From Bellilinea caldifistulae (GTDB lineage Bacteria > Chloroflexota > Anaerolineae > Anaerolineales > Anaerolineaceae): DNA of 32,000 nt. This document shows, one piece after another, positions 24,193 to 31,234 of this stretch. Every line of letters begins with the position of its first letter. The stretch's first letter is position 1. The notes below the pieces were generated by a model. The model was not told the DNA's origin. It made no database searches and saw only the letters and a program-made list of their open reading frames with translations. The stretch is from NCBI RefSeq assembly GCF_001306055.1, contig NZ_LGHJ01000009.1, positions 60,001 through 92,000 on the forward strand, written 5' to 3'. The position numbers and the translations under genes are program-made.

Positions 24193-25431
24193 CTACAACT
24201 CCCCCCGGAACGCCGCCGCTAAGATGGACTGCTCCAACTGCTCGATGGCGTGCAGGTCAGCTTCGATCAACTTCTGCGCTTCCTGCACCTCTTGCTGGAT
24301 GCTCTCCAGATAAGCGACGATGCGCCGCTGCTCAGCCAGTGAACGGTCATGATCATGTAGGTAAGGTAAAGGGACAAACAAGTTTTTTATTACTACCTGG
24401 CTGATGTTGGGTTGTGCTCCCCCAAAACTTTGCACAATTATCAAGTTGCGGGCAAATCGTAAATACCAAAATAAAAATTTGTTTAGTATATGTTCTGGTG
24501 TAAAAATAGCACAAATAGCCTGATTAGTTGCGGCTTTGATACCCAAAATACCTAGTTTTCCAACGGTTGCGCCATACATAGCCATCAAAAGAGTGCCTTC
24601 AGGGAAGATTTTAGCGTTAGAATTTTCTAATCCCTGCTCTGTTATCGTTTCTTCACTTGACGTAATTATGCCGTCATTCAATTCGCCAGATTTCACCCAG
24701 GGTATCGAGCCACCAAAATAATCAGAGGTACTTCTTCTGGGAGTTCCGCCACTTGTTGTTTTACATTCATCCCCTAATCTTTTCCACTGCCACCCCTCCG
24801 GCATTGGCTGTTCCTGAGAGGGGAACACCTCCGCCAGGGCTGATTCCATCAGGCGGTTGATGTCTTGCTGCATGGTCTCGACCTGCTGGCGCATGGCTTT
24901 GACTTCCCCCAGCAGGGCTTCCAGCCGCGCCACTATGCGCCGCTGCTCTTCCGGTGGGGGTAATGGTAATGTAATTTTTTTTATCGTTTTTTGATTGATC
25001 GTTTTACCTTTTACCGCCTGTGAAGCTTCTGTTTCGAGCGGAACAACCTGTAGTACCCAAAAAAGATATTCTGGAATAACATTGTTACGATATTCCTCCT
25101 TGATTTCAAGAGATGCAATAGCCTCGTTTGTAAACAAGTCTTTTCCTGCAAAGGCTAATTTCCCGATGGTAAGTTTAAAACTCATGAGTAATGTTCCTTT
25201 TCTTACTAAACGTACTTTACCATCGGCTATAGCTTTATCAGTCACAGTTCGTTGAGACTCTGTTACAACTCGAGAATTCATATCTGATATTGAAATCCAA
25301 GTGTGAGTCCCCCCCCAATACTCTGACCTTTTAGTAGGGGGAGTACTGCCAATTTGAATGTTACAAATAGATCCTAATGAAGTTATCTCCCATTCGGAAT
25401 TCCATTTTTCTCGCGGTAAACGCTGTTCCAT
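24193..25431 (-). CDS. hsdS: Type I R-M specificity subunit HsdS (two TRDs plus two conserved helical regions)
   Basis: The start is reassigned to the ATG at 25431 (MEQRLPREKWNSEWEI...), 2 nt after the hsdM stop. The two conserved regions are 'EEQRRIVARLEALLGEVKAMRQQVE' and 'AEQRRIVAYLESIQQEVQEAQKLIE'. The C-terminal 'ILAAAFRGEL' is typical of HsdS. Confidence 0.88.
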   Translation of the reverse strand: MEQRLPREKWNSEWEITSLGSICNIQIGSTPPTKRSEYWGGTHTWISISDMNSRVVTESQRTVTDKAIADGKVRLVRKGTLLMSFKLTIGKLAFAGKDLFTNEAIASLEIKEEYRNNVIPEYLFWVLQVVPLETEASQAVKGKTINQKTIKKITLPLPPPEEQRRIVARLEALLGEVKAMRQQVETMQQDINRLMESALAEVFPSQEQPMPEGWQWKRLGDECKTTSGGTPRRSTSDYFGGSIPWVKSGELNDGIITSSEETITEQGLENSNAKIFPEGTLLMAMYGATVGKLGILGIKAATNQAICAIFTPEHILNKFLFWYLRFARNLIIVQSFGGAQPNISQVVIKNLFVPLPYLHDHDRSLAEQRRIVAYLESIQQEVQEAQKLIEADLHAIEQLEQSILAAAFRGEL

Positions 25432-25433
25432 CA

Positions 25434-27161
25434 CTACTCCTCCCCGTTGCTGACCATCTGGTGCAGGCGCTCCAGCAGGGCAGCCAGTTCGCGCTGGCGC
25501 TCCAGCAAACTGGCGGTGATCTCCGCCGGGCGGGGCAGGGCAACCCGTTCGCTCTGGTGCGGGTTGCGGGCGCTCAGGTCGTAACCGCGGGCGCGCAGAT
25601 CGTCCAGGCGTTCCACCCAGCAGGTATATGGCGGGGCTGGGCGCGGGCCCTGCGCCTCGAAGGCGCGCCGGTAATCCGGGCTGGCATCGGGTGGGCAAAG
25701 CGGGGGATCGGCTTGTTCCCCTCTTTCCAGTTTCTCGCGGTAAGCCTGCCAGTCCCAATGAGCCTGCCACTGATCGCGAATCTCACCGGCAAAGGCAAAG
25801 GGGCGCTCGCGCTTACCCTGAAGGTAGGCTTTCCATTCCTGCCAGAGGGCGCGGGCTTCGTCAAAATGCTGGTCGGCAATCGGGCTGCCCTTGCTGAACT
25901 TCTTCAGCCCTTCGGGCAGGGGCAGTTCGTAGTACCACACTTCATCGCGCGCCAGCGGATTCTTTTCCAGAATGCGATCCACCCGCTGGAAGAAGAGCAG
26001 AGCGGTCTTGACGTCCGAATAAGGCGAAAAGACGCCCGGCGGCAAACTCACCACCGCAAAAAGGTGAAAATCGTCCAGAAGAATTTTCTTGACCTCGGCA
26101 AACGCCCCGCCGCGGAAGAGCGTGCCTTCCGGCACAACCATTGCGGCGCGGGCGTTGGGGGTGTTTTTGAGTTTCTTCAGAACGTGCTGTAAAAAAAGCA
26201 GTTCGGTGGCATTGCTCTGGATGTTAAAATTGTTTTGAATGTGGGCGCCTTCCTTGCCGCCAAAAGGCGGGTTGGTGAGGATGATATCGAAGCGCTCGCT
26301 GACGCTGGTTTTGACATCTTCTTCCAGCGTGTTGCGCCGGTAAATGTTGGGGGCGGTTACGCCGTGCAGCACCAGATTCATCGTACCCAGCAAGGCAGCC
26401 AGGCCCTTCTTCTCCTGCCCGTAAAAGGTGCTCTGCTGGAGGGTTTCCTCCTGTTCCACCGTGCGCACCTGTTTTTCCATGTGCAGGTAAGCCTGCGCCA
26501 GAAAACCCGCCGAACCGCAAGCCGGGTCATAAACTGTCTCGCCGATTTGGGGGTCAATCACCTCAACCATGAAGCGAATCACCGGGCGGGGAGTGTGGAA
26601 CTCGCCGGCGATCTGGTTTTCCTGCCCCATGCGCGCCAGCAGGTCTTCATAAAAGCGGGTAATGGTGAAGAAATCATCCTCGCGTTGAAAATCAATCCGG
26701 TTAATAATGTCAATAACCTCTTTGAGGTTGTAATCCGAAGCGCAGACCGGCACATTGCGCACCACCGTTTGATCGCCGACACTCTCATCCGAAAAGAGTT
26801 TGGCAACCGTGTTCGCCAGCGGCGAGCCGGAAAGCGAAGCCAGTCCGGGCAGTAAACGTCCGCGCACAAAAGCCACCAGTTCACCGCGGCTGGAATTCCA
26901 CTTTTCGAGCGCTTCCGGGCTTGCCCAGGCGTCCCAGGCCAGGTCGCCCTGCAAAACCGGGGTGTAGGATTGGCCGCGGAATGCGGCTTCTTCGGCGCGT
27001 TTCTTTTCTTCCAGGTCGAGAAATTTGAGGAAGAGCAGCCAGGCAATGTGCTCGGTGTAGGCCATTACCCCGCCCACATTGTTGTCGCGCCGCAGAATAT
27101 CGCAGGCACGCCACATCTCATTACTCAGGTTTTCGTTGATGGGTCGAGTGGCGATGTTCAT
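25434..27161 (-). CDS. hsdM: Type I R-M N6-adenine DNA methyltransferase HsdM
   Basis: An HsdM_N-like N-terminus is present. The SAM motif is 'VYDPACGSAGFL' and the catalytic motif is 'ILTNPPFGGKEG'. The C-terminal 'CWVERLDDLRARGYDLSARNP' tail is typical. Confidence 0.92.
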   Translation of the reverse strand: MNIATRPINENLSNEMWRACDILRRDNNVGGVMAYTEHIAWLLFLKFLDLEEKKRAEEAAFRGQSYTPVLQGDLAWDAWASPEALEKWNSSRGELVAFVRGRLLPGLASLSGSPLANTVAKLFSDESVGDQTVVRNVPVCASDYNLKEVIDIINRIDFQREDDFFTITRFYEDLLARMGQENQIAGEFHTPRPVIRFMVEVIDPQIGETVYDPACGSAGFLAQAYLHMEKQVRTVEQEETLQQSTFYGQEKKGLAALLGTMNLVLHGVTAPNIYRRNTLEEDVKTSVSERFDIILTNPPFGGKEGAHIQNNFNIQSNATELLFLQHVLKKLKNTPNARAAMVVPEGTLFRGGAFAEVKKILLDDFHLFAVVSLPPGVFSPYSDVKTALLFFQRVDRILEKNPLARDEVWYYELPLPEGLKKFSKGSPIADQHFDEARALWQEWKAYLQGKRERPFAFAGEIRDQWQAHWDWQAYREKLERGEQADPPLCPPDASPDYRRAFEAQGPRPAPPYTCWVERLDDLRARGYDLSARNPHQSERVALPRPAEITASLLERQRELAALLERLHQMVSNGEE

Positions 27162-29851
27162 TCTAAATACAGTCTCCGTTGCAGTTCACTGATGGTTTCG
27201 CGCAAAGCCTCAACGCTGCCAAAGCGTTTGGCAACGCCTCTTAACTCCCCCATGGATCGGAATGGCGGCAAACGATAGACGAGCGGATCGGTCAACTGGC
27301 GCAGGCCTCCCTCGCCGTATTTTTCCAGCAGCGTTTCAATCACCACACGGCGCTCTGGGGGAAAGGCGGCCAGCCAGCCGTTTTGTTTTCGCAAAAACTG
27401 CTGCACGCGCTGGCGGCGGGTGGGGATGGGTTGCCGCTGGAAAGCCACATAACCGATCACATCCAGCGGGTCGGCATCCTGGACTTTCAGCACCTCAGCC
27501 AGCACATCGGCGTGAACATTTTCACGTTCCAACTGCTGTTGTACCTCATCGCGGCTGGTTTGCTCCTGCCATTTTGCCAGCATGGCTTGCCAGTCTGGCG
27601 CAATGGCCATAATGCGCTGGCGGGAGTAGTCAATGTACTGTTCAAGGGTAAGCGGTTCGTCCAGCCCGGCGACAACAAAGGTGGCTTCCTCAGCGATGGT
27701 CACTTCGAGGTTGCGAACCGTAATTACTTTGACTTCGTCCTCGCGGACAGGTTTTAATTCGATGTCCACCGTGACGGTTTGATAAGCCTGCGTTTGCACC
27801 TTGATTTGGCGGCGATTGAGTCTGAGCCCATAGGCAATCAGGGTCACTTCACCGGCAGGCAGATAGTCGAATCGGAAAGCGCCGTTTTGATCCGTGAGGA
27901 TCGGCCCGCGCTGGTCGTTCGGGGCGGCCATCACTGCCACGCTGGCGCCGACAATGACCTCTCCGCTTTCGGCCAGACGCACCGTGCCGGAAATACTCGC
28001 GGTCTGCTCCCGGAGGGGAACGGGCTGGTCAATGGGTGTGGGCGGACAGTCCCAGGTTTTATCCAGCAGGCGGGTGGCATTGGTGTAGTCAATGATGCGG
28101 AACCAGTACTTGCCGGTAACCGGGTCAACACGGCTGCCGCGCCCGATGATCTGCTTGAAGAGGATGGGGGATTGGATGGTTTTCATGAAGACAATGTTAC
28201 GGCAGGATGGTACATCCACTCCCGTGGAGAGCAGTTCAGCGGTCACCGCAACCACCGGGAACTTGCGGTCACTATCCTGAAAATTCGCCAGCCAGCGGTG
28301 GGCTTGTTCGCCCTCTTCGCTGACGATGGGGACGGCATAATCTTCGTCATAACCGAGGTCGGCAAATTCGTTGTTCAACAGGCGGGCAACTTCCTGCGCG
28401 TGATCCATATCCACACAAAAGACCATTGTCTTGTGGGTGGGGCCGAACTCACGCAGCAGCCTTGCCAGATGGCGCACTAAAGTTTGTGTACGGTCGGGCA
28501 AGCGGATTTCACGCTCGAATTGGGGAGTGAAATACTCCTCCCGAACGTCAGCATCTTCGGGCGCGATGACTTCGGCGCCCTGTTCGATGACTTCGGAAAT
28601 GTGCAGTCCATCGCGGTCTATGTTGGTGCGGACACGATGAACTTTGTAGGTTGCCAGAAAGCCGTCTTCGATGCCCTGTGCAAGACTGTATGAGTAAGCG
28701 GGCGGATGAATGCTGCCCTTTTCCGGGTGGTGAGGATCAAGCGGAATGGCCGGTTCTTCGGAGCAAAAGTAGGCGTAGGTATCCACATTTTCATCTTGTT
28801 TGGGGGTAGCCGTCATACCCAGGTGGATGGCGGATTCGAAGTGGTCAAGAATTTCTTTCCACGTGCCAAATCCCGAACGGTGCGCCTCATCAATAATCAC
28901 GACATCAAAGAAATCCCGAGGAAACTTTTCAAACAACCGCTTCCCCTTTTCGTCCTGGCTCCACAGGGTCTGGTAAATCCCGAAGTAGAGATCATGCTGC
29001 AGGCTCAGACGGTTGGGGTTGTCAATCATGTGGCGCGGATCGCCATGGCTGCCAGCAAAAGGACTGAAAGCATTGTAAGCCTGATTGCGTAACACAACCC
29101 GGTCAGCCAGAAAAAGCACGCGTCCGGTGCGGCCTCGATTTTGAAACAGCCACTCCGATTTGATCAGCTTCCAGACAATTTGCATGGCAGTGAAGGTTTT
29201 GCCCGTTCCAGTTGCCATGGTCAGTAGAATCCGCTTTTGCCCGCGCATGATGCGAACCAGAACCTCGCGAATGGCGACTTCCTGAAAGTAGCGGGGCATG
29301 CTCCCGCGCGTGGCTTCGGGCGGTGCGTAGGGGTGAAGAATGGGGTTGTGGGCACGGGCACGCGCCAGTGCGGCGTTGTAAACCGGGCGCAATTCCCTCG
29401 TCTGGTGAACCTCTTCCTCAATGTTCAAGCCGGTGTTGAGTTTCCAGCGATTCCACAGTTCATCCGGCGAGGGGAACTCCGCGATTTCGCGGGTGGTATT
29501 GGTAAAACCGTCCCATTCGATGATTTGATGCCCGTTGGTGGCATAGGCAAACATCAAGTGATTATCGCGGGCGTATTGTTTGGCCTGCTCTAAGCCAAGC
29601 GCAGCGGGTTCGGCTTCAGCTTTGGCTTCCACCACTGCAATGGGGAAGGCGTCGGTATAGCGCAGAAGATAATCTACCCGGCGGGGTTTTTCCCGCTCAA
29701 CTTTTCCCCCGCGCAGGATAATTCGTCCGGGCGCATACTCCCAATCCTTACGGTAATAAAATTCACGAGTAACCTGGCTTTGAGTCCAGCCAGCGCGGTT
29801 GAGTTGGGGGTCAATCAGTTGTGCTCGCGTGTCGGATTCGTTAAGGGGCAT
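27158..29851 (-). CDS. hsdR: Type I restriction enzyme R subunit HsdR (PD-(D/E)xK nuclease, SF2 DEAH motor, inserted beta-sandwich, EcoEI_R_C-like tail)
   Basis: 897 aa. The N-terminus reads 'NESDTRAQLIDPQLNRAGW' and the nuclease motif is 'DYLL...AVVEAKAE'. The Walker A motif is 'TMATGTGKTFTA'. Further helicase motifs are 'VIIDEAHRSG', 'MTATP' and 'QIIGRGSR'. The C-terminal ~190 aa resemble the EcoEI R C-terminal domain. There is a 4-nt overlap with hsdM. Confidence 0.92.
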   Translation of the reverse strand: MPLNESDTRAQLIDPQLNRAGWTQSQVTREFYYRKDWEYAPGRIILRGGKVEREKPRRVDYLLRYTDAFPIAVVEAKAEAEPAALGLEQAKQYARDNHLMFAYATNGHQIIEWDGFTNTTREIAEFPSPDELWNRWKLNTGLNIEEEVHQTRELRPVYNAALARARAHNPILHPYAPPEATRGSMPRYFQEVAIREVLVRIMRGQKRILLTMATGTGKTFTAMQIVWKLIKSEWLFQNRGRTGRVLFLADRVVLRNQAYNAFSPFAGSHGDPRHMIDNPNRLSLQHDLYFGIYQTLWSQDEKGKRLFEKFPRDFFDVVIIDEAHRSGFGTWKEILDHFESAIHLGMTATPKQDENVDTYAYFCSEEPAIPLDPHHPEKGSIHPPAYSYSLAQGIEDGFLATYKVHRVRTNIDRDGLHISEVIEQGAEVIAPEDADVREEYFTPQFEREIRLPDRTQTLVRHLARLLREFGPTHKTMVFCVDMDHAQEVARLLNNEFADLGYDEDYAVPIVSEEGEQAHRWLANFQDSDRKFPVVAVTAELLSTGVDVPSCRNIVFMKTIQSPILFKQIIGRGSRVDPVTGKYWFRIIDYTNATRLLDKTWDCPPTPIDQPVPLREQTASISGTVRLAESGEVIVGASVAVMAAPNDQRGPILTDQNGAFRFDYLPAGEVTLIAYGLRLNRRQIKVQTQAYQTVTVDIELKPVREDEVKVITVRNLEVTIAEEATFVVAGLDEPLTLEQYIDYSRQRIMAIAPDWQAMLAKWQEQTSRDEVQQQLERENVHADVLAEVLKVQDADPLDVIGYVAFQRQPIPTRRQRVQQFLRKQNGWLAAFPPERRVVIETLLEKYGEGGLRQLTDPLVYRLPPFRSMGELRGVAKRFGSVEALRETISELQRRLYLE

Positions 29852-29853
29852 AC

Positions 29854-30091
29854 TTACCGCTTTTTATCCTTGGGTGGATTAGGATCGTGACCATCACTTT
29901 CTTTATCTTGAATTATGCCGTCCTTCTTGTGAATAATCAACTCTGAACCTTTTTTTTCAGCCAATTGACGTCTGCGTTTAATAGCCTCATCCTTTTGATA
30001 ATGGATAGATGTTGGACGTTGGTTTTCTTCTTTTTTTCACTACCCCTTGATTGTCATTTGGAACAATATGTACATTTCTCTTTTTTGCCAT
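29854..30091 (-). pseudogene. DUF2188-family small protein gene interrupted by a +1 frameshift in a homopolymer
   Basis: The minus strand reads 'MAKKRNVHIVPNDNQGVVKK' and then, after an A7 run (T7 at 30032-30038 on the plus strand), continues in the -1 frame as 'EENQRPTSIHYQKDEAIKRRRQLAEKKGSELIIHKKDGIIQDKESDGHDPNPPKDKKR*'. The joined product matches the DUF2188 pattern as I remember it. The span is 238 nt (3n+1). Neither half reaches the 60-aa cutoff of the ORF track. Confidence 0.65.
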
Positions 30092-30120
30092 AGCGCTTAC
30101 CCCGAGATCCATAAATCAAA

Positions 30121-30224
30121 CCGCCCACGCATTGCGGTTCACTTGCACCCCATTCGGGGCGCTTGCGCGGGCGGCAAAAGTTTGCTATGCTTGTTTTTGC
30201 CGCAACGCGCCTTCACCGCGTTGC
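30121..30224. other. GC-rich triple-hairpin element embedded in AT-rich DNA (ncRNA, REP/MITE-like or recombination site?)
   Basis: The first hairpin is CCGCCCACGC...GCGCGGGCGG (30121-30174), with an inner stem GCACCCC-ATTC-GGGGCGC. The second is GGCAAAA...TTTTGCC (30173-30201). The third is GCAACGCG-CCTTCAC-CGCGTTGC (30202-30224). The two track ORFs over this region have no coding character. Confidence 0.35.
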
Positions 30225-30371
30225 CGTCTCAGCCTCGCCGATACCAGCGGTGGGGCTGAATTTGTCTTTCTCAATAGTATAGCAAAGTTTTCGTTTCCAA
30301 TACCGTTTTGAGGTGGCAGAATCCAATCTCACAAACTTATTACCAAAATCTTACTCTAAAAGGAGGTTGGA

Positions 30372-31234
30372 ATGAGCCCACAAAACACCATCTGTATCAA
30401 AGATGCCCTCGAGGAATTCCTCCTTTCACGTCAGGCGATGCGCTGTTCCTCAAAAACCCTTCGAACATACCAAAGCATCTTGGGACGATTTACCCAATGG
30501 TTAGAAAAAGAGGGGGTTCAAACGGCAAACCAAATGACTTCCCGGCATGTTCGCAGATTTATGTCTCAAATTTCGGGTACTCAATGGCTTTAAATGGTTA
30601 TGGCCGTGCTATTAGGACTTTCATAAATTTCCTGAGTCAAGAAGAACTGGTTGATCATAAAATCTATATAAAAGTCCCACCATCGCCCAGGTAAAACCTT
30701 CCTTTTTTGAATTCCTCTCAAATCACACAATTATTGGAAGTTTGTGATGTCCAAGAAAAAACGATTGTTCTCTTGATCGTGGATAGCGGTTCAAGGCGAC
30801 AAGAAGTTTGCAACTTGAAAATCGGAGATGTACAAATTGAAAACGGAATGATTCGTGTTGTTCTGAGCAAGGGAAATAAGGACAGGATAGTGTTTATTGG
30901 TCAGGCTACGATCAATGCAATTTTAGATTATTTACCCGATTTCAATTATCGGGACAAAGAAAGTCCCCTTTTCAAAACCAAAAACGGCAAGCCTTTCAAC
31001 GGAGACCGTATGCAAAAAATGTTTCTCCGTCTTTCAAAACAATCGGGAATCAAAGTTACTCCTCACATGCTACGACGGTCATTTGCAACATTATCTTTGA
31101 AATTTGGAATGGACATGGTCAGCCTTCAAATGCTGATGGGGCATGCCAGCATAGAGACAACCCGCAGATACATTCAGTTATTAAGTGACGACCTTCAGAA
31201 TGCACAAAAAATGCAAGCCCCGTTGATCGGTTAA
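30372..31234 (+). pseudogene. Tyrosine recombinase pseudogene with one frameshift and one in-frame stop
   Basis: The protein is spread over three pieces. The N-terminal SAM-like domain (30372..30593) reads 'CSSKTLRTYQSILGRFTQWLEKEGV...HVRRFM'. It continues in the next frame as 'ALNGYGRAIRTFINFL' up to a TAA at 30692-30694. The catalytic domain (30707..31234) carries 'DSGSRRQEV', 'HMLRRSFATL' and 'MGHASIETTRRYIQ'. The gene is AT-rich, unlike the other integrases. Confidence 0.8.

Follow-up and report, generated by a model that had tools for sequence, protein, structure and literature searches.

The locus considered here raises the question of why the small DUF2188 gene at the head of a Type I restriction-modification (R-M) operon in Bellilinea caldifistulae is interrupted, and what the interruption may mean for hsdR, the restriction gene directly behind it. 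The initial annotation of the window (the whole stretch of 32,000 nucleotides that was analysed) reported a typical DUF2188 gene split across adjacent frames at a run of seven A residues, and this is borne out by a profile match and by the reading of both frames. Three explanations had been offered without a choice between them, namely a sequencing or assembly error, a genuine inactivating mutation and a slippery-run phase switch. An inactivating mutation is now favoured, an assembly error is unlikely and a phase switch fails the usual tests.

The split gene and the operon that it heads

The features of the locus are as follows.

29987-30091, minus strand: N-terminal DUF2188 piece, with ATG at 30091, 34 codons and a premature TGA at 29989-29987
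30031-30037, minus strand (T7 on the plus strand): A7 homopolymer, the frameshift site, as read from the sequence; orthologues have A6 or no run
29854-30036, minus strand: C-terminal DUF2188 piece in the +1 frame, with 60 codons and TAA at 29856-29854
29849-29853, minus strand: 2-nt spacer (29853-29852) and hsdR start codon (ATG, 29851-29849), without a Shine-Dalgarno motif at working distance
27158-29851, minus strand: hsdR, 897 amino acids (aa), intact, 91% identical to orthologues of the same length
25434-27161, minus strand: hsdM, 575 aa, its start overlapping the hsdR stop by 4 nt, without a good Shine-Dalgarno motif
24193-25431, minus strand: hsdS, with its own strong Shine-Dalgarno motif (GGAGGAG)
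30399-31234, plus strand: divergent tyrosine recombinase pseudogene, with its N-terminal domain in another frame and an in-frame stop near 30692

When one base of the A run is read through, a 78-aa DUF2188 protein results, which matches positions 1-61 of the 62 in the Pfam DUF2188 model (PF09954) with an E-value of 3.6e-16 and 59.5 bits against a cut-off of 22. The 60-aa C-terminal piece by itself matches positions 14-61 (E 7.8e-13), and the C-terminal part scores 48.3 bits in a profile search of the genome. Full-length alignment of the joined protein with six intact relatives of 77-78 aa gives 64-70% identity, and the match is therefore not due to chance. The window gene itself lacks an uninterrupted DUF2188 frame, being split at A7. 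Since TAG and TGA (30042-30037) stand immediately 5' of the run in the second frame, the two halves can be joined solely at or after the run. Past the insertion, the zero frame reads AAA AAA AGA AGA, in which AGA AGA are two rare Arg codons (AGA makes up 5.1% of Arg codons in this genome, 3.3 per 1000 codons). The run had initially been placed at 30032-30038; the run itself is present, but these coordinates were one base off. The accompanying statement that a one-base correction restores a 78-aa ORF stopping 2 nt 5' of hsdR agrees with the sequence. A second run (A8) lies in frame in the same gene at window positions 29949-29956 on the minus strand, and arose by a G-to-A change relative to orthologues, replacing Glu by Lys.

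The operon has the order DUF2188, hsdR, hsdM, hsdS, gajA, gajB, and thus combines Type I R-M with Gabija, hsdS being followed by an OLD-family (GajA-like) gene and then by a UvrD-like (GajB-like) gene. The HsdR, HsdM and HsdS domains that define Type I R-M occur within this one operon: HsdR contains ResIII, Helicase_C, EcoEI_R_C and HSDR_N domains, HsdM contains N6_Mtase and HsdM_N, and HsdS contains Methylase_S twice. On the other side of DUF2188, the displaced N-terminal part of the recombinase pseudogene is a SAM-like domain, and the recombinase is approximately 30% identical to intact recombinases at orthologous loci.

DUF2188 corresponds to PDC-S16 of PADLOC, a candidate single-gene defence system, whose profiles are matched by the window read-through (E 4e-24, 83 bits) and by an orthologue (E 1.4e-31, 107 bits); the family also matches a phage family of unknown function. 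The window gene thus resembles other PDC-S16/DUF2188 genes in its strong profile matches and in its place at the head of Type I R-M plus Gabija in a defence island, and differs from them in being frameshifted and in lacking the conserved Trp. To our knowledge, no function has been experimentally tested for the DUF2188/PDC-S16 family. Its defence link comes from genomic context only (bioRxiv 10.1101/2022.04.27.489752; bioRxiv 10.64898/2025.12.03.692087), and is credited to Burroughs and Aravind 2020 in the former source. The name PDC-S16 was not found in a literature search, and NCBIfam holds no model for the DUF2188 protein. An AlphaFold model predicts a confident beta3-alpha-beta2 fold (pLDDT 85.8) without a helix-turn-helix. 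Foldseek gave no significant PDB match (best E 0.08) and BFVD matches to uncharacterised phage proteins only, and a sequence search among solved structures found nothing for the DUF2188 protein. Approximately 80 metagenome DUF2188 loci have varied downstream neighbours with scattered defence-type genes. Among the approximately 80 tblastn matches, three contain stops, two of these at the gene end and one internal, in another DUF2188 homologue on a metagenome contig (L051:365-589).

Orthologous loci, the hsdR junction and the age of the break

The comparison set comprised ten further loci in which DUF2188 lies directly 5' of an hsdR of the same type. These were L010 and L011 from the same genus, L097 from the same family, L016 on a metagenome contig, and L117-L122 on six contigs, which carry the three closest proteins. 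DUF2188 is intact and in a single frame in all ten. Six have A6 at the site, as two AAA Lys codons followed by GAA; the other four, representing two protein types, have no run and encode the same Lys-Lys as AAG AAA or AAG AAG. A7 occurs in the window only, among the 11 loci. AAA is the preferred Lys codon of the genome (66%), the genome has 630 A/T runs of seven bases and 133 of eight, and the DUF2188 gene is Lys-rich, with other in-frame runs of A5-A8. The A tract thus follows from codon choice rather than representing a specialised device.

The junction with hsdR is conserved. In all 11 loci the DUF2188 stop lies 2-4 nt from the hsdR ATG, the gap being 2 nt in the window and 4 nt in L120-L122. 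Inspection by eye, without a scoring model, found no Shine-Dalgarno-like motif at a functional distance from the hsdR ATG at any of the 11 loci; such motifs are present before DUF2188, hsdS and gajA. A close stop and start, with a downstream gene lacking a separate ribosome-binding site, is the arrangement of a translationally coupled pair. The stretch between the premature stop and hsdR folds into no special structure (z +0.86), and no structure masking the start was found there. Since the gap is 2-4 nt and hsdR is without a Shine-Dalgarno motif in every locus, the intact DUF2188 ORF most likely brings ribosomes to hsdR by termination-reinitiation.

Elsewhere in the array, whose further gene starts lie at window positions 27161, 25431, 24175 and 22318 on the minus strand, hsdM and gajB, like hsdR, lack a Shine-Dalgarno motif and either begin 2-4 nt from the stop of the gene before or overlap it, and hsdS and gajA have strong motifs. 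To judge by these motifs and spacings, the array looks like three translational units inside a single operon.

A small ORF placed tightly 5' of a restriction gene recalls the controller (C) genes of Type II systems such as PvuII and AhdI, which precede the endonuclease gene and are co-transcribed with it. In both cases the small ORF is positioned to set the amount of nuclease. The likeness ends there, in that the DUF2188 model has no helix-turn-helix and no significant PDB match, and the system is Type I.

The break is probably a genuine and recent A6-to-A7 slippage insertion, which would have made DUF2188 a recent pseudogene with no programmed or contingency switch, weakened its probable coupling to hsdR and lowered HsdR. 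An A6 formed by two AAA Lys codons would have slipped to A7, and ribosomes would then halt after 34 codons, 135 nt before hsdR, leaving DUF2188 as a recent pseudogene. An intact small ORF would feed ribosomes to hsdR by termination-reinitiation, and hsdM would receive them via hsdR. Because ribosomes would stop 135 nt early, HsdR synthesis would be expected to fall, perhaps along with that of HsdM. In most respects this would be an ordinary homopolymer slippage pseudogene, with a single-base gain in a short run of AAA codons, a stop soon after, intact relatives and an adjacent integrase that is also decayed. It would differ in that the ORF lies 2 nt before a restriction gene without a ribosome-binding site, and the break may accordingly be polar.

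The age of the break can be judged from the constraint on the gene. Relative to orthologues, dN/dS is approximately 0.10 for the window DUF2188 copy and 0.075 for hsdR; no relaxed constraint is shown by this comparison. As the DUF2188 value is near that of hsdR, most of the divergence would have accumulated under selection, and the break would be recent. Several residues of the window copy are nevertheless unusual. Trp16, in the G-W-x-V motif of the second strand, is found in 78 of 81 single-domain relatives and in all ten hsdR-linked orthologues; the window copy has Gly. Gly22 is replaced by Glu, which no family member has at this position (0/81). Position 40 is Arg, where 78 of the 81 have Ala or Gly and none has Arg, and position 66 is Asp, where 75 have Tyr, His or Phe and none has Asp. 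On family profiles the window copy scores 15-24 bits under its close relatives. These residue changes, the low profile scores and the decayed recombinase are in keeping with constraint having been partly lost where the island begins; the unusual residues could also be lineage-specific rather than a product of decay. In addition, the DUF2188 segment (29854-30091) is far more diverged from orthologues than hsdR (27158-29851), with a dS of 1.5 versus 0.6 and an amino-acid identity of 73% versus 91%. This difference in dS suggests a recombination boundary at the junction between the two genes.

Other readings of the seven-base run

The first alternative is that the cells carry A6 and an intact gene, and that the extra A entered the consensus by error. 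Homopolymers are the classic place for indel errors, the window belongs to a draft assembly, and the DUF2188 frame has been kept with the dN/dS of a functional gene given above. Against this, GOMI-1 has been assembled twice, and no intact DUF2188 protein from either assembly is in a collection of approximately 15 billion protein sequences. The genome of the window is an assembly of 31 contigs and 3,655,684 bp, 99.68% complete by marker genes, a figure that itself speaks against error. HsdR and HsdM sequences identical to those of the window each occur on two contigs, the longer being 3,698,317 bp, and B. caldifistulae GOMI-1 has been published as a single 3,698,317-bp scaffold, obtained by Illumina MiSeq sequencing (2x250, 180x) and SPAdes assembly (PMC4574363). 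Consensus indel error at seven-base runs is low with this chemistry. That collection contains the read-through protein with neither start, and the nearest protein that a similarity search gave is 70% identical; had the other assembly carried an intact 78-aa gene, its product would most likely have been predicted and have turned up there. Genome-wide, a crude and noisy screen counted 268 frame joins at long homopolymers versus 202-234 at random control sites, which is no clear excess. The argument from the second assembly is indirect, as it relies on no intact protein having been called there rather than on its DNA. With no read-through protein in the collection, no clear homopolymer excess and Illumina chemistry, an assembly error is unlikely, and the extra A is inferred to be present in the cells themselves.

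A second alternative accepts the extra A and supposes that +1 ribosomal slippage, or slippage of RNA polymerase, still yields useful full-length DUF2188 protein at a low level. From the run on, the +1 frame is free of stops up to its TAA, and the slippery Lys codon is followed by the two rare AGA codons. In E. coli, frameshifting is more frequent at tandem AGA_AGA or AGG_AGG, +1 shifts are favoured where a slippery codon precedes tandem rare Arg codons, and indels compensated by low-level frameshifting have been documented (PMC5009743). A little full-length protein could thus conceivably leak through, given slippery AAA and tandem AGA at the run. However, a programmed frameshift would show a conserved two-frame arrangement with a shift site, and all ten orthologues are in a single frame; nothing programmed is therefore indicated. 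Moreover, efficient transcriptional slippage needs approximately nine A or T residues, tandem rare-codon frameshifting drops sharply at low mRNA levels (PMC5009743), and the conserved Trp would be missing from the product regardless. The G7 run of the herpesvirus thymidine kinase gene, an example of an indel compensated by low-level frameshifting (PMC5009743), is similar in that a seven-base run has gained one base and slippage could restore a little product; for the window, the DNA sequence by itself gives no sign that a product is made or needed. Useful leaky decoding is accordingly considered very improbable.

The weakest alternative, a phase switch in which A6/A7 variation within the population toggles DUF2188 and, via coupling, HsdR, is least probable of all, since tract length, conservation and the lack of any other OFF allele all tell against it. 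What speaks for it is that six related loci hold A6 at the exact site where the window has A7, that the placement of the ORF lets its reading frame matter for hsdR, and that simple-repeat phase variation is well known in Type I systems; variation of a G7 tract has also been reported (PMC7383803). Mononucleotide tracts in Type I loci are, however, customarily counted as phase-variable from nine bases upward (PMC7383803), and this tract has seven. It is one of the 630 A/T runs of that length and is not special among them, and an A6 arising from Lys-Lys is expected by chance at the AAA usage of this genome. Nor is the tract kept across orthologues: comparison of orthologous loci had been proposed beforehand as a check on the switch, and the four loci in which the same Lys-Lys is encoded without a run, in two orthologue types, count against it, although six retain A6. 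The runs at those six are all in frame, with no OFF allele among them. A metagenome scan with the flanks of the run, at tract lengths of 5-9, found no near-identical locus. In phasevarions, where repeats lie in hsdS, hsdM or hsdR (PMC7383803), tract length likewise sets the frame, but the window tract has only seven bases, lies outside the hsd genes, is missing from some orthologues and belongs to a set of tract-bearing loci showing no length variation except in the window genome. The host is also a free-living digester anaerobe and not a host-adapted species rich in contingency loci.

A structured leader upstream and the meaning of the break

Upstream of DUF2188 lies a putative structured leader, with two features.

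30112-30263, minus strand: leader of four helices, the last being a GC-rich hairpin (30121-30174) followed by a T-rich tail (30111-30120)
30276-30284, minus strand: extended -10-like motif TGCTATACT, 5' of the leader, identified by eye and kept in most copies

The T-rich tail ends approximately 20 nt 5' of the DUF2188 ATG. A consensus promoter scan did not pick up the TGCTATACT motif, and Rfam covariance models gave no match in window 29800-30800 at E-values up to 1. The element, of approximately 130-150 nt, is present in four copies in this genome and also in several other Anaerolineae genomes. Other copies are at C17:29487-29618, C20:5922-6072 and C1:9786-9915 of G000, and at L010, L011, L012, L016, L097, L100, L105, L106 and L111. 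The operons 3' of the copies are of different defence types and comprise DUF2188-hsdR, DUF2188 alone, WYL-WCX, NERD-helicase, HSDR_N_2 with an N6 methylase, an SNF2 helicase and DUF4007, and a divergent tyrosine recombinase lies 5' of the leader in most copies. At L105 (G037 C111:93285-93418 and 93519-93646), tandem leaders approximately 100 nt apart precede the DUF4007 gene. An integron reading of the recombinase-leader-cargo layout was set aside, the recombinases being Xer-like and of 255-324 aa.

The four helices are supported by a sequence-based alignment of 17 copies. Compensatory change was found in 16 of 34 leader pairs versus 6.6 ± 1.8 in shuffled alignments (0 of 500 reached the observed value), and the covariation score was 0.192 versus at most 0.088 in slid controls. 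These values include diverged copies found with a structure-aware model, which favours compatible sequences; with close copies alone covariation was not above controls, and it became clear after the diverged copies were added. The 5' arm of the last helix overlaps the 3' arm of the third. From its predicted structure and its distribution, the element looks like a transcription-attenuating, riboswitch-like leader common to defence operons, and is a candidate new cis-regulator of them. A more far-reaching proposal is that the DUF2188 ORF is the first translated reader of a new structured leader heading at least six kinds of defence operon beside tyrosine recombinases in Anaerolineae, that its translation brings ribosomes to hsdR, and that restriction has been naturally uncoupled from this control by the A6/A7 change, or is switched by it very slowly. 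This is speculative and, taken as a whole, unlikely.

Taken alone, a recent slippage insertion in DUF2188 is a routine frameshifted gene and mainly an annotation matter, and the B. caldifistulae gene should be annotated as a pseudogene. A leader common to unrelated defence operons could be a new cis-regulator of anti-phage systems. For the organism, lowered restriction would make its Type I system a possible low-restriction variant of natural origin. For the family, a conserved gap of 2-4 nt with no ribosome-binding site points to DUF2188 (PDC-S16) serving at least partly as a coupling ORF for the nuclease subunit, a proposed role that would belong to the ORF and not to the protein.
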